DNA of 15,874 nucleotides. Source: a virus. Taxonomy: Duplodnaviria; Heunggongvirae; Uroviricota; Caudoviricetes. A program made the position numbers and the translations under genes. The stretch is from the IMG/VR virus record IMGVR_UViG_2671180770_000015; one strand, written 5' to 3'. The notes beneath the pieces are model-generated. The model saw nothing but the letters and a program-made list of their open reading frames with translations, searched no databases and was not told where the DNA came from. Every line of letters begins with the position of its first letter. Within the stretch, counting starts at the first letter, position 1. Positions 101-13,920 of this stretch are shown here, piece by piece.

Positions 101-600
101 TCAAACCTCAGCAAATAATCGAAGAACACATTAGCGGCTCAGCAGCAACCAGTGAGCGTCCTGGTTTTAACCGGTTGCTTGCTCGCCTGAAATGTGGTGA
201 TCAATTGATTGTGACAAAACTGGATCGCCTTGGTTGTAATGCAATGGATATCAGGAAAACAGTGGAACAACTGACCGAAACAGGTATCAGAGTGCATTGC
301 TTGGCATTGGGTGGCATTGACCTGACCAGTCCAACAGGAAAAATGATGATGCAAGTAATTTCAGCAGTCGCTGAATTTGAACGAGACCTTTTACTTGAAC
401 GCACTCATTCCGGGATAGTAAGAGCCCGCGGCGCAGGGAAACGCTTTGGTCGACCACCTGTGTTAAATGAAGAACAGAAACAGGTGGTATTCGAACGAAT
501 TAAGTCAGGTGTAAGTATAAGTGCCATTGCCCGGGAATTCAAAACCTCGCGGCAAACCATTTTAAGAGCCAAAGCAAAACTTCAGACACCTGACATATAA
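101..600 (+). pseudogene. Serine recombinase (PinQ/PinR-like resolvase/invertase family), 5'-truncated at the IS junction; catalytic-serine region missing
   Basis: Frame open from 61 to stop at 598-600, with no ATG/GTG (ORF track starts at TTG 175). Translation [13 protein letters not shown]...VTKLDRLG...[14 protein letters not shown]...GRPP plus C-terminal [18 protein letters not shown] matches the serine recombinase catalytic core and DNA-binding domain, but the N-terminal xRVSTxxQ motif is absent and replaced by IS-derived sequence. Confidence 0.85.
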
Positions 601-697: not shown

Positions 698-1273
698 CTA
701 CGGCAGTGCTGGCCATTCAATATCCTGTGCAGTTGACGTATCAACACGGTTCAGCAATACCCGATACTTTTTCCATGCTTCCAGCAACGAGATTTCTTCC
801 TCCGTTGCAATTTCCAGATCTGCAGCATCCTGAAGCGGCGCAATATGCTCACTGGCTACCTGCATCAGGTTGTTTTTTGTTTCTTCCGCCTCCCGGATCC
901 GGAACAGTTTTTCTGCTTCCGTATCCTTCACCCAAGCTGTGCCGTTCCACTTCTGAAACTCCCCTTTCGGCGATAACCAGGTAACATTTTCCGGTAACGG
1001 ACCGAGTTCAGAAATAAATAACGCGTCGCCGGAAGCCACGTCATAGACGGTTTTTCCCCGATGATCTTCAACGAGATGCCACGATGCCTCATCACTGTTG
1101 AAAACAGCCACGAAGCCTGCCGGAATATCTGGCGGTGCAATATCGGTACTGTTTGCTGGCAGACCTGTATGAGGCGGAATATATGCGTCACCTTCACCAA
1201 TAAATTCATTAGTTCCGGCCAGCAGATTATAAATTTTTATGGTCCGTGCTTGTTCACTCATTCTGAATGCCAT
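698..1273 (-). CDS. tfa: Tail fibre assembly protein Tfa (lambda Tfa-like chaperone)
   Basis: 191-aa [42 protein letters not shown]..., near-identical to lambda Tfa as recalled. Its start codon overlaps the stf stop (TAATG at 1271-1275). Confidence 0.93.
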
Positions 1274-4236
1274 TATGCAAGCCTCACAATATAGTTAAAT
1301 GCGATGTTTTTGACGGTGTTTTCCGCGTTACCAGCAGCGTTAACGGTGATGGTGTGTCCATGTGAACCAATCGCAACGGAGTGCGTATGAGCACCAATAC
1401 TGACAGTATGTGCATGTGCGCCTGCGCTTGCAGCAGTGCCGGACAGCGAGTGGGTATGAGCACCATCTGATGATGTCTTCCCTGCATTACGAGTCTGGCC
1501 ACTACCGCTTGTTGTGCTCATAATCCCCGCGCTTAGATTTGAAATCGCGGTATAACCATTAGGGAAAATGCTCGTGTTCGTGCCACCAAATGCACCGGAA
1601 CTCTTGTGTTGGTGCGCACCGGCACTATTTGCAGTCCCGCTAATACTATGGGTATGCGCCCCGGTGTTATTCGTGGATTTGGTTCCGTAATCAAACGACG
1701 ATGTGTTTTTCGTCCCCAAATCCGTACTGGATGCGCTGGCGCTGTGGGTGTGCGATTTAATGCCGTCCTGTTCCTGAGACAATACGGCACGACCACTGGC
1801 GGGTTTGCCCTTAATCGTCCAGCCACGCATATCAGGGAGCACGCCTGACGGATAAGCGGCTGCAAGTTTCGGGTATGCAGATTTGTCAAAAGTCTGCCCC
1901 TGCATCAGGGCATAGCCAGACGGAACGGTATCTGATGGCCACGGGATTGGTGCGCCAGGCGGATAAAACTGCTCTGATGGCGTATAGAGTGAATAAACTG
2001 TACCGTCCGTTAACCCTTCCGGCTTATTAGCAGAATATGCTGGTGACGTATGAATCGTCACGCTGGCATTACTGGTATAATCCCATTGAATATTTACACC
2101 AGTCGCATAATTTCCGATTGCAACGTAAATATCGTAAGTATCACCAGATGTATTGACCCAGGCAAAATTTGTAAACCCTGTCGATGTGCGCTGCCATAAA
2201 GCACCAGTAATCCCCTTCGGATTACCATTACCTGCACGCAAAACAAGTTCAGATATACCTGCCTGTTGAGGTGACCCCACGTTAAATCCCGCGCCACCAA
2301 TCAACGTAATTGAAACAACAGAACTCGCCTGTGGCATGGTTACCGTTGCTAATTTGAACCAACCAGCACCACCACTGAATGACATTGTTGTTGAGTTAAG
2401 CGTACCAATATCTTTCGGCGTCAGTGTTATATCAGCTGAAAGCGCCTTACCATTCACCTTACGGGCAGAAGGTACCCGACCATTCGCATTATCATTAGCT
2501 GCTTTCACTGCTTTCGGTGTCGCAGCAAGCGTTTCAGATGCGCTGTTGGTTGCACTACTGAGCTGGACAATTCCTTTTTGTGTTGTCGTAGAGTCCTGAG
2601 CAGTATATTTCCCGTTAGCAAGGTCATAGGCTGCCTTTACCGACTTTGGCGTTGCCGCCAGCATTTCAGATGTGCTGTTGGTCGCGTTGCTAAGCTGAAC
2701 TATCCCTTTCTGTGCTGTCGTTGCATCCTGTGCGGTGTATTTCCCGTTAGCCAGCTCATACGCGGCCTTAACGGCTTTTGGCGTTGCCGCCAGTGACTCG
2801 GAAGTGCTGTTAGTCGCACTGCTGAGCTGTACTATCCCCTTTTTCGTCGTGCTCGCATCCTCAAGCGCCACGGCGGATGCAATATCCTCTGCCCGTTTTG
2901 CCGCTGTCTCGGCGCGCGTTGCCGCGGATTCCGCCGTACTTTTGCTCTGAGCTGCCGCCGTCGCACTGCCAGCTGCCTCTGTCGCCTTCGTGGATGCCGT
3001 CGTGGCGCTGCCCTTTGCTGCTGACGCCTGTCTGGTCGCCTCATCTTTTGAAGCAGACGCAGATGATGCCGATGACGCCGCCGAACTGGCGGACGATGCG
3101 GCAGCCGTTTTTGAGGATTCTGCGCTGGTTTCCGACGCTTTCGCGTTCGTCTCGGATGTCTTCGCTGCGGAAGCAGACCTCGCTGCTGCGCTGGCCTGTT
3201 CAGTGGCTTCGCCAGCCTTCGTTGTGGCTGTTGAAGCGGACGATGCGGCGCTTTCTGCCGATTTTCCGGCGGCGCTAGCACTGGCTGAGGCCTGCCCGGC
3301 ACTTGTTGACGCTGCACTGGCAGACGACGCAGCCGCTGTTTTTGAGCCTGCCGCAGCTGAGGCACTCTGTTCCGCTGCCGTTTCAGAAGACCTGGCGTTT
3401 GTCTCAGACGTCTTTGCCGCCTTCGCGGAATTGCCTGCCGCCGTTGCCGAGGAAGCGGCACTACTGGCGCTTGATGATGCGTTCGTTTCTGATGATTTCG
3501 CTGCCTCTTTTGAGGCCGCCGCATCCCGGGCTGAGGTGGCAGCTTCTGACGCCTTCGTGGTCGCGGCGGATGCAGAAGTAGCTGCTGATTGTTGTGACGC
3601 TGCCGCATTCGTTTCTGACGTTTTCGCCGCAGCGGCACTGGTAGCTGCCGCGCTTTTTGAGGACTCTGCAGCAGCAGCACTTTTCGATGCTTCACTGGCC
3701 TTTGTTGATGCCGTTCCTGCGCTGGAAGATGCTGACTGAGCAGATGATGCAGCCTGTCCGGCTGACGTGCTGGCGGCACGAGCTGAGCCTGCAGCATCGG
3801 TTGCATGAGTTGCCGCCTCACTGGCAGATGTGCTGGCATCACTGGCTGACTTCTTCGCGGCTGCCATGTTCTGTGCCACTGCGGACGCGTTACGCGCCAC
3901 CTCTTCCACCATCAGTTCAAAACGTCGCAGAGCCTCCGGACGGGCATCATCCTCCGTCATAGCACCGAGAAAATCATTCAGCGTACCGGGTCGGGAATCT
4001 TCATACACGGTGATGGTCCCGGCATGTGACGGCGGGAATCCTTCCACCAACAGAATAACGCTGTACTGACCGTACTCAACGTCCATGCTGTAACGCCCGG
4101 CTTCATCCGGATTTTCTGAGGCCAGCGTGTTCACCACCACCGCTGTGCTGTTACGTTTTGCTTTCAGCTGGATTGTGCAGTTCTGTACCGGTTTTCCTGT
4201 GCCGTCTTTCAGTACACCTGAAATCTTTACTGCCAT
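1273..4236 (-). CDS. stf: Side tail fibre protein Stf (lambda Stf-like), intact
   Basis: The ORF is 989 aa from a GTG at 4242; the likely true start is the ATG at 4236 ([26 protein letters not shown]...), matching the lambda Stf N-terminus. It has a long Ala/Ser-rich region, three tandem tail-fibre repeats, a His-rich GAHxH region and the C-terminus ...[11 protein letters not shown]. Confidence 0.93.
2476..2871 (-). repeat. Three tandem copies of a ~132-bp (44-aa) phage tail-fibre repeat inside stf
   Basis: Protein repeats ...KGIVQLS(S/N)ATNS(T/A)SE(S/M/T)LAATPK(A/S)VKAA... occur three times, with matching DNA periodicity around 2476-2871. Confidence 0.75.
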
Positions 4237-4247
4237 ATTCACCCCAC

Positions 4248-4273
4248 AAAAAAGCCCGCCTGAACAGGCGGGC
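4248..4273 (-). terminator. Rho-independent terminator immediately upstream of stf (downstream of the lom remnant)
   Basis: Minus-strand GCCCGCCTG-ttca-GGCGGGC followed by TTTTTTGTGGGG; the stem is 4254-4273 and the U-tract is the complement of the A-run at 4248-4253. Confidence 0.8.
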
Positions 4274-4300
4274 TGTCATAACACTGTGTTACCTGGCTAA

Positions 4301-4561
4301 TCAGAACTTATAACCGACACCCACGATGAAACCGTCAGTGCGCCAGTCACCACTGCCGGAGCCTTCATAAGCAATATCAATGGCCACGGATTCGGTCGGG
4401 TTAAACTGCACGCCAGCTCCCCACGCCAGAGACGTGTTGCTGTGGCGACCGTCATCACTTCCGGTCAGCACGTCGTGCGTTTTCCCCTTGTTGTCAGTTA
4501 CGCGGAGATAATCCCCGGAGAAAGTCGACACACGGCTGTAAGCCATACCGATATGCTCCAC
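4301..4561 (-). pseudogene. lom: Lom outer-membrane protein (Ail/Lom family), 3' fragment only (~80 C-terminal residues, no signal peptide)
   Basis: Translation ...SLAWGAGVQFNPTESVAIDIAYEGSGSGDWRTDGFIVGVGYKF matches the lambda Lom C-terminal beta-barrel strands; the N-terminal ~120 residues are absent. Confidence 0.85.
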
Positions 4562-5390
4562 TTAACCGACCACCATCACGGGCCTGCTGTTGCATAAAGT
4601 CCGCTGCCGCTTTTTTCCCAAGGTCATAAACCACCTTCAGGGCAGCCGGACCTATCTGCCCGTTCGTGCCATCGTTATTGATCTCGATGTTGTACTGCGG
4701 GGCAAACATCGCCATACCTGAACCACCAATATCCGCCACAACCCCCAGCTTACCGTCAGCACCACGACGCAGTGGCAGAATGGCTTCAGGTCCAGCTTCC
4801 CCCATCACACCCGCGCCTTTTGCAAAAGCAAAAAACGTCGGACGGTTAACCACCGTGCCACTGTAACGACTCAAATCAGCAGACTGATAAATCCCCCCAT
4901 TGGCATTCAGGGAAAGGCTGCTGAGATCAAATCCCAGTACACTGCCAATCCCTTTTATCGATTTCATCATGGTTGCCTGCGCCAGGATTTTCGCCATATC
5001 TGACAGCACCGAAGAGGTGAAGGATTTGAAGTTGAGTTTGCCGGTAGTGACAAAAGTTGCCAGGCCATTTCCCATGTTGCTGAAGGCTGACGAGAACACC
5101 TGTTCTGCTGTTCCTGCCGTATTGTCTGCATCCACGGTAAAATCCTGAAATGCACGCAGGACTCCGTTTTTCCAGTTACCCTGCACAACTTCAAGCTGTT
5201 GCCAGTAACGGCGATTCTCATTCAGTTGTCGGTTCAGGCTCTCCGTCAGCGCCTGCTCGGCCTTTCTGTAGTCATCCGTGTTATATGTCCCTTTCTGCTC
5301 ACTATCCCGCCTCAACTGCTCCAGCTGTTGCTGGTATTTCTGGCGAAGACTCAGTTGTACCTGATATCGCTGCCGCTGCTGATCACCCAT
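4494..5390 (-). pseudogene. Tail tape measure protein (lambda gpH-like), C-terminal ~280-residue remnant, reading through into the lom remnant
   Basis: Translation ...INNDGTNGQIGPAALKVVYDLGKKAAADFMQQQARDGG... matches the lambda gpH C-terminus. The native stop is missing and the frame runs a further ~17 codons into lom-derived DNA. A stop lies 9 nt upstream of the first Met, so the N-terminal ~550 residues are absent. Confidence 0.85.
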
Positions 5391-5548
5391 ACCTGGTTAT
5401 CTCCCGCAACGGTATTCCCGGCAACCTGCCGGGTGGCAACCGAGACCGCTTTCTGTGCCACACGGTTTATCGCCCATGCGCTGGCCTGTGGCACCATATG
5501 GGTATCAAGGCTGTTCAGATTGCGGATGGCATTCTCAAGCCCCTTCAT
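5351..5548 (-). pseudogene. Tail completion protein (lambda gpZ-like), N-terminal ~45-residue stub running out of frame into the tape measure remnant
   Basis: MKGLENAIRNLNSLDTHMVPQASAWAINRVAQ resembles the lambda gpZ N-terminus (MAIKGLEQAVENL...AMAINRVAS); similarity is lost after about residue 44 and the ORF terminates inside the tape-measure frame. Confidence 0.6.
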
Positions 5549-5559
5549 CCCACACCTCT

Positions 5560-5835
5560 TTACTCAATAAAGATCATTGGCTTACCATTAAAACGTTCAT
5601 GCCGTGTGACCGTCCATTGTTGTCCGTCATAAACAACGCGATCCCCGCGCCGTGGGCGGTATCCCGAAGAAAACACCACCAGAGAGACCGCAGGTCCGGA
5701 CAGAGCATTCAGCTCTGCCAGTGTTTCTCCCGGGATCACAGTCATATCGACATCATTAATCGAGGCTGTCTTTCCCATCTTTCTGACCGTGATAGCATCC
5801 ATACGCGCTGCCAGCCGGGAAAAGGGAGCAGACAT
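5560..5835 (-). CDS. Head-tail joining protein (lambda FII-like)
   Basis: 91-aa ORF; the pattern ...RRGDRVVYDGQQWTV... resembles lambda FII (...LRRGDTLTIGEENFWVDRV), and the gene sits between head and tail genes. Confidence 0.55.
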   Translation of the reverse strand: MSAPFSRLAARMDAITVRKMGKTASINDVDMTVIPGETLAELNALSGPAVSLVVFSSGYRPRRGDRVVYDGQQWTVTRHERFNGKPMIFIE

Positions 5836-6151
5836 TGAGTTTTACCGGCACTTCTTCTGCACTGGTTCCGGCATCTGCCCAGACAACCCCGACCAGCGGA
5901 TCAGAGCCGCTGTTAGTCAGCTGAACTTTTCCGGACTTCAGATAAACCTTCTTACCCGTTTTCATGTCATCCGTTTTCAGCTTAGGCAGCATAAACACAC
6001 CTTCGGTCATGCCGTCGCCTGTTTCACCCTGTGGAATATTGGTCAGCGCCACCGCAAAAACATCACCCACCTGCACCAGATCTCCGCTGCTGATGGCTGC
6101 ACTGGCAACAATCGCCACCGTTTTTCCTTCTTCTACAAAATTCTTTGCCAT
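5756..6151 (-). CDS. Phage head protein, DUF2190-like (putative capsid cement/decoration protein)
   Basis: The ORF track starts at 6196; the likely start is the ATG at 6151, preceded by GGAG (MAKNFVEEGKTVAIVASAAISSGDLVQVGDVFAVA...). Family assignment is from recalled sequence pattern and position immediately after the capsid gene. Confidence 0.5.
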   Translation of the reverse strand: MAKNFVEEGKTVAIVASAAISSGDLVQVGDVFAVALTNIPQGETGDGMTEGVFMLPKLKTDDMKTGKKVYLKSGKVQLTNSGSDPLVGVVWADAGTSAEEVPVKLNVCSLFPAGSAYGCYHGQKDGKDSLD

Positions 6152-6194
6152 AACTGTCTCCGCACAGCCCCGTTCAGGGGCTGATTTCAGGTAC

Positions 6195-6214
6195 AAAAAA
6201 AGCCCTTACGGGCC
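6195..6214 (-). terminator. Putative weak intrinsic terminator just downstream of the capsid gene
   Basis: Minus-strand GGCCCGTAAGGGC hairpin followed by seven T (complement of the A-run at 6195-6201). Confidence 0.4.
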
Positions 6215-6237
6215 ATCAGAGTTGTTGTCTGCGACGT

Positions 6238-8199
6238 TTACGCCGTACATTTCACCAGACCGCGGTGATCAACTGGCGCGACACCGGCGTCAATACGCAC
6301 TTTCGTTGTCACGCCATCCACACTGAAGCCCTCCATCTGATCAATATATGGCGTATCCACACCGTTGAGATAAGCCACTTCAATCGTATCGGAGCCTTTT
6401 GACGCAGCCAGGTAGAAGGTGGTCTGGCTGTTATCATCAAGACGAGGCTCTGCAATAACGGTCGCAAAATCTTTCACCGGGTTAATAATACCGGCGTTAA
6501 TGTCAGCCCCCTTGACACTTGAGGAGCGAATGACCTGGTTAGCAACAGACTCCATCGCCGTCGGTACCAGTACGAACGCAGGACGAATATTCAGATGACG
6601 CTCCCCCTCTTTCTGAACGCGCATCAACTGGCGGGCTTTATCCAGCGATGCCACGTCCATTGCAGCGCTCTCCAGTACGTTTGCATGTTTCGCTTTATCG
6701 AACAGACTTACATTATCTGTGGAGATTTTCGGGTTAGACGTCAGAATGGCATAAACCAGATCGGCAATAGTGGATTTCGCCGCACGGCCCAGTTTCATCG
6801 GGACATCGGTCAGCATATTCAGATCATCATTGATAATGGCCTGACGGGTGATACTGAACAGCTCGCCATAGGTCGCCAGTGCAATAGTGGCCTGTTTATC
6901 TCCGGTGGTGACGTATTTATATTCCGCCCCTTCACGCACCTGACGCAGAGCACTGAAGCCCCCCATACCCACACGATGGGCAATTTTAAAATCAGACAAC
7001 TGACCTTTCCGCGTCCACTGTTCATAGGTTTCAGGGGCATCTTCCCAGCCCTGCAGAATGGCTTTGTTCGCAACATCCAGCAGAATATTACCGAAGTCAG
7101 ACGTACTGTGTGTGAACGCCGCACCGACCATCTGCATCGGGTTATAACTGGAAACCCCAATACCCCGTTCAGTCAGTGACATACGGGCATATTCACGCAG
7201 GGTCATCCCGTTGTAGACATTATCACGTTCGGTTTTTTCAAATCCGGCACGCGCCATCAGCGCCTGGCGGATCCCGTCCCCCACAAAATTACCGTTACCG
7301 GCATAAATATGAGCCGGGGTATTTTTATTGGATGGCGTGGACTCGTGCCCCATCTCGTTCAACAGCTTTTCGCGGGCCTGCTCCAGCGAACATTCAGGAT
7401 CGGCAAGACACTGAGCCTGCAGCGACTGATAACGCCCGCCAAACATGGCAAACAGATCATTAATACCGTTTACACGCGCTTTTTGCTCTGCCAGGACCTG
7501 CGCACGGATGCTGTTTTCATCCACCACGGGTGCTGCTGCTGCCTGCACTGGCGTCCGGGAGGCTGCAGGTTCATCATCCTGTACGCGTGGAGCACTGTTG
7601 CGTGGCGGAGTAATCATGTTTCGAATGGATTCCGGCATCTTTTTAAATTCCTCTGTACGTTTTGACTGAATACATGCCATTGCCTTAACGGCTGGCGTTA
7701 CCTGATCAGCAAATCCATGTGCCAGACATTCGGCACCGGACATCCAGGTCTCATCCACCAGCATGGCAGCAATTTCATCGGTGGTTTTCCCGGTTTTCTG
7801 TGCATAAGCGGGTAACAGAACCGCCTCAACCTTATCGAGCAGGTCGGCATAGGTGCGCATGTCCTCCGCATCACCGCCCGTAAAGCCAAATGGTTTATGA
7901 ATCATCATGAAGGTGTTTTCCGGCATAATGACCGGGTTTCCCACCATCGCAATGACCGACGCCATTGACGCCGCCACACCGTCGACATAAACGGTAATGG
8001 ACGCACCATGTGTTTTCAGCGCATTAAAAATGGCGATGCCTTCAAAGACATCGCCACCCGGTGAATTAATATGGAGATTAATGTGGGTGATATCGCCCAG
8101 TGCATTCAGATCACTGATAAACTGCTTCGCTGTAACACCCCAGAAACCAATCTCGTCATAAATATAAATATCCGCGTCACTCTGGTGACCAGCCTGCAT
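6238..8199 (-). CDS. Prohead protease (ClpP/S14 family) fused to HK97-fold major capsid protein
   Basis: Single open frame 6238-8460. The N-terminal part has the ClpP-like motifs IYIYDEIGFWG and INSPGGDVFEGIAIFNAL; the C-terminal ~400 aa look like a major capsid protein. The likely start is the ATG at 8199 (MQAGHQSDADIYIY...); an alternative ATG at 8331 cannot be excluded. Confidence 0.8.
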   Translation of the reverse strand: MQAGHQSDADIYIYDEIGFWGVTAKQFISDLNALGDITHINLHINSPGGDVFEGIAIFNALKTHGASITVYVDGVAASMASVIAMVGNPVIMPENTFMMIHKPFGFTGGDAEDMRTYADLLDKVEAVLLPAYAQKTGKTTDEIAAMLVDETWMSGAECLAHGFADQVTPAVKAMACIQSKRTEEFKKMPESIRNMITPPRNSAPRVQDDEPAASRTPVQAAAAPVVDENSIRAQVLAEQKARVNGINDLFAMFGGRYQSLQAQCLADPECSLEQAREKLLNEMGHESTPSNKNTPAHIYAGNGNFVGDGIRQALMARAGFEKTERDNVYNGMTLREYARMSLTERGIGVSSYNPMQMVGAAFTHSTSDFGNILLDVANKAILQGWEDAPETYEQWTRKGQLSDFKIAHRVGMGGFSALRQVREGAEYKYVTTGDKQATIALATYGELFSITRQAIINDDLNMLTDVPMKLGRAAKSTIADLVYAILTSNPKISTDNVSLFDKAKHANVLESAAMDVASLDKARQLMRVQKEGERHLNIRPAFVLVPTAMESVANQVIRSSSVKGADINAGIINPVKDFATVIAEPRLDDNSQTTFYLAASKGSDTIEVAYLNGVDTPYIDQMEGFSVDGVTTKVRIDAGVAPVDHRGLVKCTA

Positions 8200-8335: not shown

Positions 8336-9154
8336 TTAGGCCTTGCGCCGACGTTTGACATCATCCGGATTACGACCACCAGCACGTACCCAGTCTGATT
8401 CTGTCGCCGCTCCACCACGAATCTGGATTTTCCAGGCCTCAGCCTCCTTAACAGGGTCAATCCACGGCATCACCGGTCCGGAATACACCGCGGTATACAG
8501 TGAAGAACGGTCAAGATCGCGGGGTAGCCTGATAACACCGGATGCCACAGCCTGTTTCAGCCAGGCACGATACATCGGGCGGGTGACGGCACCAATAAAC
8601 CAGTCCTGCAGGATCAGGTAGCCATCAGTAGACTCAACCAGTTCCTGACGCTGCGCGCTGTAAGTGCCGTTATAGTTGCGTGCCGTACTGGAAAAACTCA
8701 GACGACTGCCCGCCGCCACGGCACGCAACTGACCATTACGAAAAGTTTCAAGGTTAGGATTGGGACGATCCGACTTCACCATTCCGATTTCTTCGCCGGG
8801 TTTCAGATCGTCGTAAATAATGCCTGGCTGAATGGTAAGCTCGCGTTCATTCTCCTTGCTGCCATTACCATCCGGTTCATAGCTCTGCCCGTCGCCTTTC
8901 CGGATGTACATCCCCAGAGCAGCGGCGATCCTTGCTGCAGTCAGCTCAGAATCTTCATACTCTTTCAGAGCACTGAGGCGGATCAGCACACCGGACAACA
9001 AAGACGTCCCGCGCATCTGGTGCAGACGGCGAACAAATTTAAGATGCAGCATTCGCTCTGCATCCACTTCTTTGGTTTCCATCTGCCGCCCGGATACGGG
9101 ACGGCTTTTATACACCAGATATTTTTCGGGACACCCCCAGTCATCAACAAACAC
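8336..9154 (-). pseudogene. Portal protein (lambda gpB-like), C-terminal ~270 residues only
   Basis: Translation ...YSAQRQELVESTDGYLILQDWFIGAVTRPMYRAWLKQAVASGVIRLP... resembles the lambda B C-terminal half (...YSSARASANESWRYF...EEALLRGIIRPP); the N-terminal half is missing. Confidence 0.7.
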
Positions 9155-9186: not shown

Positions 9187-10578
9187 TCAGCTGGCCGGAT
9201 CAATTCGCTGGCTCTCCCCGTCGCTGTCACCGCGCAATGACTGCGTGATGTTGTAACGATCAATAATCCAGCGTTCGCCACGGCTGCCATAGCCCGTTAC
9301 CTGAACCACAAAACGGCGATGACGTCCCGCCTGCACATCCACTGTCGCCACAAGGAAATTAACGCCATCCGGCACACTGCGGGAAGGAACTGGCTCTGCC
9401 CGCTGCTCAAGCAATTCACTTTTTCGTTGCTCCATGCTGGCGCGGGGAAGATAAGGTAATCCCCAGTCGGTATTGATAACCGTCTTGAGTGTCTCTTCAC
9501 TTCCGGTTGTCTCGTATTCCTGTTCTGCAGTAAGCAGTTTGTAAACGAGTTGCGAGAGTGTCTGATAAGCAGCTGCCGGACCCTCCATCCAGAATGACGC
9601 AATACGTGAACGCCGGGGATCACCATAACGACTGCCATCTGCATTGATGGATTCACCATCCCGTAACCAGACCCCACGTCCGTTCAGCTCGCGTTTTTGT
9701 TCAGGCAAAATCCGTCCTGAACAGGAAGGACACTGAATATAAGCCGCCTCACTTGCCAGCACAGGATCGGCAATATCACGGAAACCAGCAACCACATCGC
9801 CGCAGGGCTGAAAATACTCACCACAGTGTGGACAGGGCCAGTACCAGCGACGGCGATCGCCACGGTTATAGAGCGACAGGATCCCCGTGGTTGGTGGAGC
9901 CTCATGCGGTGAAGTCCGTCGCCATTTCACATCCTTCACATCCCTGCCGGGGGAACTCTCCACAAGCGTCATACCACTGGACATAAATGTGGTGGTACGT
10001 TTTGAGGCAAGAGAGAAGGCATCCCCCTCACCATCAATATCTTCCGGAAAACGGTCATAATCCGTCAGCGCCACGCATTTATAATCTGATGAAGACATGA
10101 TATTGACTGACGGCCAGCCGATTTTCAGGTAGTTGCCAGCAAGGAATGTTCTGTCATAAACGTTGTTGTCATTTTTGTTCGGACTCAGGCGACTGACCAC
10201 TTCCGGGCTGACGCGAAACGTTCTGGCGAGTCGTTTTTTGGAGTGTTCGCGGGCTTTTTCCTCCGTCATCTGAATGATCAGCATATCAGCAGGATCGCAA
10301 ATCACGTTGTAAATCACCCAGCCGTCAATCAGGCCGATAGTCTTGCCGGTTCGTGCCGGGCCAACAAATATCACTGCGTCGTATTCACGCGAGGCCAGGC
10401 AGTTCATCGGCTCAATAACATACGGTGCCACCAGCGGATCCCACGGGACTGAGTTCCCTGCCCCCATGGGCACCCGCATATACTGAGCAACGGCATCAGC
10501 AACCCGCATTCGTCTCGGTGCGCGAAGGATATAACCTGAATCGGTTCGTGCTGCCTTTGCGGTTTCCTGATTCAGCAT
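9187..10578 (-). pseudogene. Terminase large subunit (lambda gpA-like), truncated to 463 aa (lambda gpA is ~640 aa)
   Basis: WYWPCPHCGEYFQ matches the lambda gpA FHVACPHCGEEQY region, and the ORF ends at ...WIIDRYNIT..., equivalent to about gpA residue 480. The downstream sequence is portal-derived, not terminase. The start overlaps the terminase small subunit stop (ATGA). Confidence 0.8.
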
Positions 10579-12685: not shown

Positions 12686-12868
12686 ATTGAATACATCAGA
12701 TTAAATTAATCTTGACATCATAGCTTTCAAGACCCGTCATTTTTTCCCGTGCGGTAAACTGAATACTGGTAACTTCTTTCCCGGTCTTTTTCTTAAGTTC
12801 AATAATTTTTTTGTTATATATTCAGAAATATCTGCTTCTGCTTTTGTTTTTAAGTCTTCAATATTCAT
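12686..12868 (-). pseudogene. gnsB: GnsA/GnsB-family small protein gene, disrupted by a frameshift in a homopolymer run
   Basis: Minus-strand start MNIEDLKTKAEADISEYITKK, then after a 7-base A-run (plus-strand T-run at 12806-12812) the GnsA/B-like sequence IIELKKKTGKEVTSIQFTAREKMTGLESYDVKINLI continues in another frame. The frame is restored by a single-base insertion in this run (8 A instead of 7). Confidence 0.6.
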
Positions 12869-13038
12869 CATTTCCTCTTTTAGTCTGTTATGACTTTCCA
12901 GTTAGACAGTAAGTCGATTATATGGTGCAAACGTGTAAAAGATAAGATGAAACATCGCAATAATCAACATACGATAGTCTAAATTTTACACAAACAGACA
13001 AAGAGAATTTCCCGAATTATCAATGCAATAGCATCAAA

Positions 13039-13352: not shown

Positions 13353-13541
13353 AAATCCAACGACAGACGGCTGGCATTTAAGTATTGTGAAATATTATCA
13401 AATGTAATCATCATTGATTTACAAAAGATACATTTTGCCCCGAAAGGATTCATGTCAGAAACATCAAAAGATGATGTTCTATACTGGGAACCATGACAAC
13501 ACGGGCATCTAAAGTGAATATGGTTTGTAATATTGTCTACC

Positions 13542-13754
13542 TCAAAGCGCCACTACATGAACAGCGGCAGGACCTTTAGGTCCGTTCTCAATACCAAATT
13601 CAACTTCCTGATTCTCAGTTAATGTTTTGAAATCGTTGCTCTGAATTGCTGAGAAATGGACAAACACATCTTTGCTGCCATCTTTCGGCGTGATGAAACC
13701 AAAACCTTTTTCAGGGTTAAACCATTTCACTAAACCAGTCATTTTGTTAGACAT
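13542..13754 (-). CDS. cspI: Cold-shock protein, CspA family (CspI-like)
   Basis: 70-aa [41 protein letters not shown]... with the RNP1/RNP2 cold-shock domain motifs; symbol assigned by synteny with the Qin lysis cassette. Confidence 0.9.
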
Positions 13755-13920
13755 AATTATTACCTTTTGAAGAAATTAGCCCTTGGGCAGAATGGTCCGA
13801 AAAAAAATATCAGAGAGAAAAACCAACAAGGAAATCTCAAGAGGTACAAATAATAAAATTATAACAATGACTGCTTCAGATAAATTTGTAACAAACCAGA
13901 ACACCATTAACGCATGATTA
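13755..13920 (-). promoter_or_regulatory. Probable long AT-rich 5' leader and promoter region of the cold-shock gene (extent uncertain)
   Basis: About 360 bp of AT-rich non-coding sequence lies between the Rz stop (14117) and the csp start (13754); CspA-family genes typically have long structured 5' UTRs. No promoter hexamers could be placed with confidence. Confidence 0.3.

Follow-up and report, generated by a model that had tools for sequence, protein, structure and literature searches.

Fused fragments of Z, tape-measure and lom genes in a putative Qin-type prophage remnant of Escherichia coli

How do the beginning of one phage gene and the ends of two others come to lie fused in a row, with none of the genes that should separate them? 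The question is raised by positions 4301-5548 of IMG/VR virus record IMGVR_UViG_2671180770_000015, a stretch of 15,874 bp (hereafter the window) that constitutes the entire draft contig CYAV01000077.1 of assembly GCA_001277695.1 and carries nearly all its genes on the minus strand. An initial annotation, made from the letters alone, had read this locus as a stub of the minor tail gene Z, the 3' end of a tape-measure gene (H) and the 3' end of a lom gene, brought together by two deletions, and had proposed alignment to an intact prophage as a check. That alignment places both breakpoints to the base, with 3-4 bp of microhomology and no remnant of an insertion sequence (IS), and agrees with Pfam searches on the fusion of the three fragments on the minus strand. 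Very probably, the region is non-functional debris of a Qin-type cryptic prophage, produced in one lineage by three RecA-independent deletions with short or no microhomology.

When compared with complete E. coli genomes, 98% of the window aligned, at 98.6% identity, to prophages spanning about 27.8 kb. The best match, a Qin-type prophage located at the Qin locus of NZ_CP080080.1 (L002), was taken as the intact reference for base-level mapping. Its annotated early genes are essD, ydfR, rrrQ, rzpQ, cspI, ynfQ, ynfR, ynfN and gnsB; they are followed by a head part (terS of the DUF1441 type, terL, a small gpW-like gene, portal, a ClpP-capsid fusion, a DUF2190 gene and a Gifsy-2-family gene), by a tail part with Z, U, V, G, T, H, M, L, K, I, J and lom, which makes the head-tail module complete, and by a right end with stf, tfaQ, pinQ, ydfK, ynfT and ydfJ. 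Local alignment of the window with this reference yields four collinear blocks and exactly three gaps:

Block 1: window 15699-9189, L002 3001-9511, 98.8% identity, carrying the lysis and cold-shock genes
Block 2: window 9189-5391, L002 10966-14761
Block 3: window 5393-4546, L002 19308-20155
Block 4: window 4549-101, L002 26382-30830, covering the lom remnant, stf, tfaQ and pinQ

The lysis and cold-shock genes essD/Q-ydfR-rrrQ-rzpQ-cspI-ynfQ-ynfN-gnsB are collinear in the window, and the same genes are annotated in the Qin prophage of strain K-12. The right arm stf-tfaQ-pinQ is likewise present, with matches to tail-fibre Pfam families and with pinQ readable from residue ~31 to 196. By its gene content and order, the window appears to be the remnant of a Qin-type lambdoid cryptic prophage of E. 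coli. Its placement at the Qin locus is taken from its relatives because both contig ends consist of IS5-family sequence, the only IS sequence in the window, and offer no host flank.

The two gaps that flank block 3 delimit the scar, whose parts are the following:

5391..5548, minus strand: Z' stub, the start codon and codons 1-52 plus 2 nt of a gene that has 192 codons when intact (L002 14604-14761)
5351..5390, minus strand: out-of-frame tail of the Z' open reading frame (ORF), 13 wrong-frame tape-measure codons with the stop at 5353-5351
4546..5393, minus strand: H' remnant, tape-measure codons 740-1021 (282 codons) in the native frame
4494..4545, minus strand: read-through tail of H', 17 codons (YGLQPCVDFLRGLSPRN) of out-of-frame lom DNA, with TGA at 4496-4494
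4301..4549, minus strand: lom' remnant, codons 118-199 and the stop (the lom coding sequence of L002 is 26031-26630)

At the first junction (J1; window 5393-5391, minus strand), L002 14761 is joined to L002 19308 across a 3-bp microhomology, GGT, common to Z (L002 14759-14761) and to the tape-measure gene (L002 19308-19310). The join leads from Z codon 52, out of frame, into codon 740 of a tape-measure gene of 1021 codons, and the 4,549 bp deleted comprise the 3' end of Z, the genes U, V, G and T, and H codons 1-739. Parents and product read as follows, a slash marking the crossing point here and below:

Z: GATAACCAGGT/GAAAGG
Tape measure: CACGGTGGGT/ATGGGTGATC
Product: GATAACCAGGTATGGGTGATC

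The resulting Z' ORF (5351..5548) encodes 65 aa and its end overlaps the start of the H' ORF; the Pfam family Minor_tail_Z matches 5548-5351 with profile positions 1-52 of 190. An independent Z'-to-H' deletion is found in NZ_CP058901.1 (MS10495; L001 6380-6388), where Z codon 12 is joined to tape-measure codon ~683 (L002 14639 to 19141) over a short AA microhomology without TA, at breakpoints differing from those of J1.

At the second junction (J2; window 4549-4546, minus strand), L002 20155 is joined to L002 26382 over a 4-bp microhomology, GGTA. The partners are the end of the tape-measure gene, CGGTA/ATG, where the stop codon TAA overlaps the start codon of M, and lom, GGGTA/TGG. The cut falls within the stop (TA/A), which loses its third base and becomes TAT, and the join is made at lom codon 118:

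Tape-measure end: GCATATCGGTA/ATGGAGACG
lom: GATGGCGGGTA/TGGCTTAC
Product: GCATATCGGTATGGCTTAC

This deletion of 6,230 bp took away the last base of the H stop, the genes M, L, K, I and J, and lom codons 1-117. The H' remnant is 99.3% identical to L002 19308-20155 and 99.9% identical to L001. Its ORF (4494..5390, 298 aa) starts at an internal methionine, Met741, with the ATG at 5390, and has no internal stop; the Pfam family Tape_meas_lam_C matches it at 5390-4494, and phage matches also cover 'tape measure / M'. The lom' remnant lies in another frame than the H' read-through and is devoid of a start codon, a signal peptide and the first beta-strands.

With these positions the annotation from the letters alone can be made precise. 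Two separate deletions relative to an intact Z-U-V-G-T-H-M-L-K-I-J-lom order are borne out by the alignment with L002, and J1 and J2 are placed within the ranges it had proposed, 5390-5420 and 4547-4565. The Z stub is out of frame as described, but its length, given as about 44 residues, is 52 codons plus 2 nt. The estimate of the last ~280 tape-measure codons agrees with the 282 counted, whereas the native stop described as missing has lost only the third base of TAA. The surviving tape-measure piece is not central, being the 3' terminal quarter of the gene including its last sense codon; the lom remnant, made up of codons 118-199 only, does lack its signal peptide.

Could these be complete genes, belonging to an unusual family of phages? 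This reading was rejected, since every fragment is 98-99.9% identical to a part of a longer intact gene; flanking identity of 98-99.9% on both sides of each junction also rules out chance resemblance. A full-length lambda-type tape-measure protein (gpH) is expected to have ~850-1020 aa, with coiled N-terminal and central regions in addition to the Tape_meas_lam_C domain; the window has only codons 740-1021 of 1021, and the Ail_Lom match at 4561-4301 covers only profile positions 118-199 of 199 and not a complete eight-stranded barrel with signal peptide. Z', H' and lom' are pieces of such proteins and do not themselves qualify as members of the three families. No IS trace or filler DNA was found at J1 or J2, because the two native flanks explain the whole product sequence, and an adjacent deletion mediated by an IS is not what the junctions display.

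The remaining gap corresponds to a third junction upstream of the scar:

9189, minus strand: J3, terL codon 463 joined to portal codon ~178 (L002 9511 to 10966)

Here 1,455 bp with the 3' end of terL and the 5' end of portal are deleted over a 1-bp microhomology, T, and the junction itself forms the TGA stop at which the truncated terL ends. The Pfam profiles are truncated accordingly, GpA_nuclease ending at position 116 of 294 and Phage_portal_2 beginning at position 158 of 354. In the window the portal remnant (8336-9154, minus strand) also bears a private nonsense mutation, GAA to TAA at 8338, which leaves 272 aa vs 313 aa in sister contigs.

As the window is a whole draft contig whose inverted identical 100-nt ends are typical of repeat ends in an assembly graph, the junctions might be suspected of being chimeras of short-read assembly. 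Carriers were located by exact-protein look-up of the two chimeric ORFs, which gave 9 and 23 contigs. At least 14 contigs of independent samples have all three of J1, J2 and J3, and the three 27-mers spanning them are identical in every retrieved contig reaching the sites. Besides the window, these carriers include 3 NCBI assemblies, 4 of ENA metagenomes and no fewer than 5 produced by Logan, with varied samples and assemblers; they differ from the window by 0-32 substitutions, and the ENA carrier record that names its source gives the human gut. Moreover, 3-4 shared base pairs are far too short to mislead a k-mer assembler. The sharing of the junctions across independent samples shows that the scar was inherited in a real lineage, and we regard the probability of an artefact as negligible. 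The scar is rare as well, being found neither among 5,426 complete E. coli genomes, where junction-centred 91-nt queries returned no J1 or J2, nor, as exact J1 and J2 patterns, in a one-genome-per-species collection or in JGI metagenome contigs. One human-gut ENA contig with the same J1-J3 (L008) has at 5080-6664 a 437-aa fibre gene and an 89-aa Phage_fiber_C gene vs the 987-aa stf; the fibre end has apparently been exchanged or rearranged within the J1-J3 lineage.

The explanation that we favour would begin with an ancestor possessing a complete head-tail module. Deletions at J3, J1 and J2 would have removed 1.5, 4.5 and 6.2 kb in one lineage and left over the 52-codon Z stub, the last 282 tape-measure codons and the last 82 lom codons, in their original order and orientation. 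We infer that at each junction two DNA ends were joined, or a nascent strand switched template, at 1-4 shared bases with no transposable element involved, and that the chimeric ORFs (Z' of 65 aa, H' of 298 aa and lom') are by-products which would not be under selection. The junctions have the form of microhomology-mediated deletions, with GGT at J1, GGTA at J2, T at J3 and no insertion. In a simulation of random junctions in this phage sequence, a microhomology of at least 3 nt arose in only 5.6% of cases, so J1 and J2, taken together, are unlikely to be homology-free joins. Further decay of the window copy, by the portal nonsense codon, a frameshift in gnsB and an IS-cut pinQ, fits the same picture. 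The scar is ordinary prophage decay, a known kind of thing, and this allele of it is new.

Two known situations help to place these deletions. Microhomology-mediated deletion, or microhomology-mediated end joining (MMEJ), in E. coli gives clean junctions such as those in the window, with 1-4 bp shared (up to 6 bp elsewhere), losses of kilobases and no insertion. In the defective lambdoid prophage of O157 strain DEC4E, the genes from Z to the 5' part of H are lost as well and a 3' tape-measure fragment is followed by tail-tip genes; unlike the IS-free junctions of the window, that junction holds an IS1203/IS629 copy, 21-24 nt downstream of the J1 site. At that distance from the breakpoint, the DEC4E insertion lends no support to IS629 as the agent at the J1 site.

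Several points weigh against the explanation that we favour. The breaks do not fall at random. Independent deletions in other strains use the J1 site in the tape-measure gene, the J3 site in the terminase gene and either site of J2, and the majority of junctions in the phage family have their crossing at TA; neither the reuse nor the TA crossing is predicted by plain random illegitimate recombination. To our knowledge, microhomology deletion pathways are not expected to reuse the same nucleotide positions across strains or to favour TA. No intermediate with only one of the junctions was found that would fix the order of the events or their number. Finally, that the intact 298-aa H' ORF lacks a function is a judgement made where divergence is too low for a selection test.

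The reuse of breakpoints deserves closer description. Four of the six window breakpoints are what we call hubs, sites joined to different partners in other strains; the hub positions in L002 are 9511, 9643, 10418, 12011, 19310, 19763, 20155 and 26385, and those used in the window correspond to its positions 9189 (J3), 5391 (J1) and 4546-4549 (J2). The hubs recur, in either direction, in Qin-type and related lambdoid prophages of many E. coli strains (loci L018-L021, L023-L031, L034, L035, L038 and L039). The terminase-side breakpoint of J3 is common, within one nucleotide, to deletions with differing right partners in other strains: the sequences joined to site 9511 (GCTA/TCC) come from portal, upstream of portal, stf, J and the tape-measure gene, and the site also serves as a right partner. 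Two other hits followed up in this connection proved to be intact terminases. The tape-measure site of J1, L002 19310 (GGGTA/TGGG; GGGTA/TGGGTGATC), has at least 8 different left partners at the DNA level, including Z (the window), terS (L023), three terL positions (L025, L026 and L039), portal (L031) and capsid (L030), and at the protein level it is also joined to gpT, a HTH_36 protein and a Cro-like protein. In strain E1620 this hub follows immediately on the J3 terminase site, as CCAGCTA/TGGGTGATC. The H/M boundary of J2 is used in the opposite direction in L030, strain ES2 (L038) again uses the lom site of J2, with a terL partner, and the stf site of the K-12 Qin terL/stfQ junction is common to two other left partners.

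The second regularity concerns the shared bases themselves. TA lies within them in 15 of the 22 junctions for which both native flanks could be read, as against 0.5% expected by simulation of random junctions in the same sequence and 3% given a microhomology of at least 2 nt, although the ~22 junctions were gathered by following leads and not by a designed survey, and the partners of one hub are not independent TA observations. One TA junction is located in the host gene ydfI, and the K-12 Qin terL/stfQ junction conforms to the pattern too. Breakpoint reuse and TA bias are real in the data examined; no paper describing them was found in the literature searched, the coverage of which was incomplete.

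One way to account for both regularities is a break, a nick or a replication barrier that prefers certain TA-containing hubs and is followed by rejoining to another hub or to a site of terminal microhomology. J2 (GGTA/ATG with GGTA/TGG) would then be a hub-to-hub join, and J1 and J3 joins of a hub to an ordinary site. This proposal refines the deletion history given above by supplying a specific cause for the same scars, and does not exclude it; we hold it to be nearly, though not quite, an even prospect. The use of the same sites with different partners and the excess of TA junctions speak for it. On the other side, no enzyme or element has been identified, no strong motif shared by the hubs was found beyond TA and a G two bases upstream, and neither the Z side of J1 nor the portal side of J3 has TA. 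At several hub joins the bases used are GG, GGT, T or CT and not TA. A DNA end that is fixed at the hub, or a 3' end stalled there, would explain this better than a TA-specific chemistry.

Candidate agents were considered in turn. A hairpin or cruciform at the hubs seemed promising by eye at two of them, but a systematic scan gave only stems of 4-8 bp without consistent geometry, and the idea was dropped. Quasi-sites of a Pin/Din invertase were rejected as well, the published Pin crossover repeats (TTGGTTTGGGAGAAGG) being unlike the hubs. Chi sites, the RuvC and RusA consensus sequences, integron secondary sites, the lox spacer, mimicry of IS2, IS150 or IS1 ends, and type II restriction sites are not known to fit all hubs. 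Gyrase has been characterised by Topo-Seq, with quinolone-stabilised scission occurring before G and a degenerate motif of 130 bp. IEE, an E. coli enzyme capable of MMEJ that more than 30% of assemblies are reported to carry, requires a homology of 4 bp or more in vitro (PMC9943667), whereas many of the junctions described here share TA alone. Among the possible causes of breakage at preferred sites are nucleases, topoisomerases, transposases that act on pseudo-sites, and lesion-prone sequence.

Could J1 and J2, and perhaps J3, instead stem from one complex replication event? In serial template switching of the type known as microhomology-mediated break-induced replication (MMBIR) or fork stalling and template switching (FoSTeS), a strand would have jumped from Z to the tape-measure gene, copied 848 nt and jumped on to lom. 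Every contig reaching both sites has both junctions, and neither contigs nor complete genomes offered J1 or J2 alone; this co-occurrence is equally expected if both deletions predate the sampled lineage. Order and orientation are kept, as forward template switches need. In addition, the native right-hand sequences of J1 and J2 (L002 19307 and 26381), which would be the acceptor sites, both read GGGTATGG, an 8-mer that has no further copy between Z and lom; the coding strand of L002 has 8 occurrences of GGTATGG, the other strand none. An intermediate with J2 only would encode a protein of 1038 aa, a size beyond the reach of the protein search, the longest returns of which had ~520 aa. Single deletions at the same sites in L023, L025, L039 and L038 show that each join is possible alone, and we judge a single event unlikely.

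A different question is whether the tape-measure fragment was kept because it serves the host, for instance as a domesticated protein starting at Met741. The 298-aa ORF is uninterrupted and predicted by gene callers, and GGAG stands ~10 nt upstream of its ATG. A protein search with the H' ORF also returned many chimeras whose unrelated N-termini (terS, terL, gpT, ClpP-capsid, Z, KilA-N, PerC, Dam and a Cro-like protein) pass into the tape-measure C-terminus at a small number of constant points, among them exactly Met741, the J1 site. Many strains independently keep C-terminal fragments beginning at this residue. A start that is precise to the nucleotide with in-frame, out-of-frame and unrelated partners alike points, however, to a mutational hot spot and not to selection. 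Other strains keep other sub-fragments (codons 741-893 only, or 894-1021 only), no sigma-70-like promoter was found in 4150-5900, and an open H' frame is expected without selection because identity to the intact genes exceeds 99%. Domestication appears very improbable.

The survival of a small piece between back-to-back deletions had been called an unusual pattern. This does not hold, as such islands are common in Qin-type remnants: KFu022 (L020) retains 381 nt of J between terL' and tfa', ET881 (L018) a 520-nt piece of stf lying between terL' and ydfI of the host, the widespread Qin variant of CP030281.1 (L031) tape-measure codons 741-893 between a portal fragment and stf, and a Logan contig (L030) five collinear islands.

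What the scar means depends on how these regularities are read. Taken alone, it is one more allele of a decaying prophage, of use mainly as a lineage marker, its three exact junctions being absent from the complete genomes and present in human-gut samples. We tentatively suggest, as a possibility somewhat weaker than the hub mechanism itself, that lambdoid prophage decay may be driven by breaks or template switches at a few preferred TA sites, such that strains lose the same segments repeatedly. Were breakpoints sequence-preferred in this way, models of prophage domestication in which recurrent gene retention is taken for selection would have to include a term for mutational bias, parallel deletions would no longer be evidence of shared ancestry, and a DNA-breaking or template-switching activity with a preference for TA would exist and be there to be found.

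The best known relative, the Qin prophage of K-12 (ydfJ locus), shows how far such decay can differ between strains, and Qin has been reported to vary between 11 and 97 kb among 189 strains (PMC6379469). K-12 Qin resembles the window in its module and gene order, essD/Q-ydfR-rrrQ-rzpQ-cspI-ynfQ-ynfN-gnsB ... stf-tfaQ-pinQ, and in having its structural genes broken by internal deletions; its nohA/terL to stfQ junction was mapped for comparison. Unlike the window, it retains nothing between the beginning of the terminase gene and stf, and its packaging module is of the lambda type with nohA. The window for its part keeps terS of the DUF1441 type, most of terL, the 3' end of portal and the protease-capsid fusion, as well as two head-completion genes, ahead of the Z'-H'-lom' scar. 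Two features border the latter:

5560..5835, minus strand: head-completion gene of 91 aa, Pfam PF13856 (Gifsy-2 family, E = 6e-17), collinear with L002 14317-14592
4253..4274, minus strand: terminator-like hairpin of lom, a 9-pair stem with 7 GC pairs followed by TTTTTT, native and kept downstream of the scar

The first of these is the final intact head gene before the scar and bears the RefSeq name 'DNA breaking-rejoining protein'.

Other lesions are specific to the window copy. In gnsB (12737-12871, minus strand) a private frameshift near 12805 leaves 43-44 aa vs 57, the gene being intact in sister contigs with J1-J3. The pinQ gene (window 101-600, plus strand) is missing its first ~30 codons and an IS5-family end abuts it at 101, vs a full gene of 196 aa in sister contig L003; PinQ was recently reported to invert the P segment of e14 and to block adsorption of phage T2 (PMC12529663). 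The contig ends, 1-100 and 15775-15874, are the same 100 nt in inverted orientation and show 100% identity to the terminus of a multicopy IS5-family element, which suggests that two inverted IS copies, or a collapsed repeat, bracket the prophage segment in the source strain. This element is presumably IS903-like. A scan with Rfam, which gave no match inside the scar range, placed two models above the gathering score, the cspA thermoregulator at 13515-13900 (minus strand), upstream of cspI, and the IS009 candidate RNA at 732-930 (minus strand), inside tfaQ.

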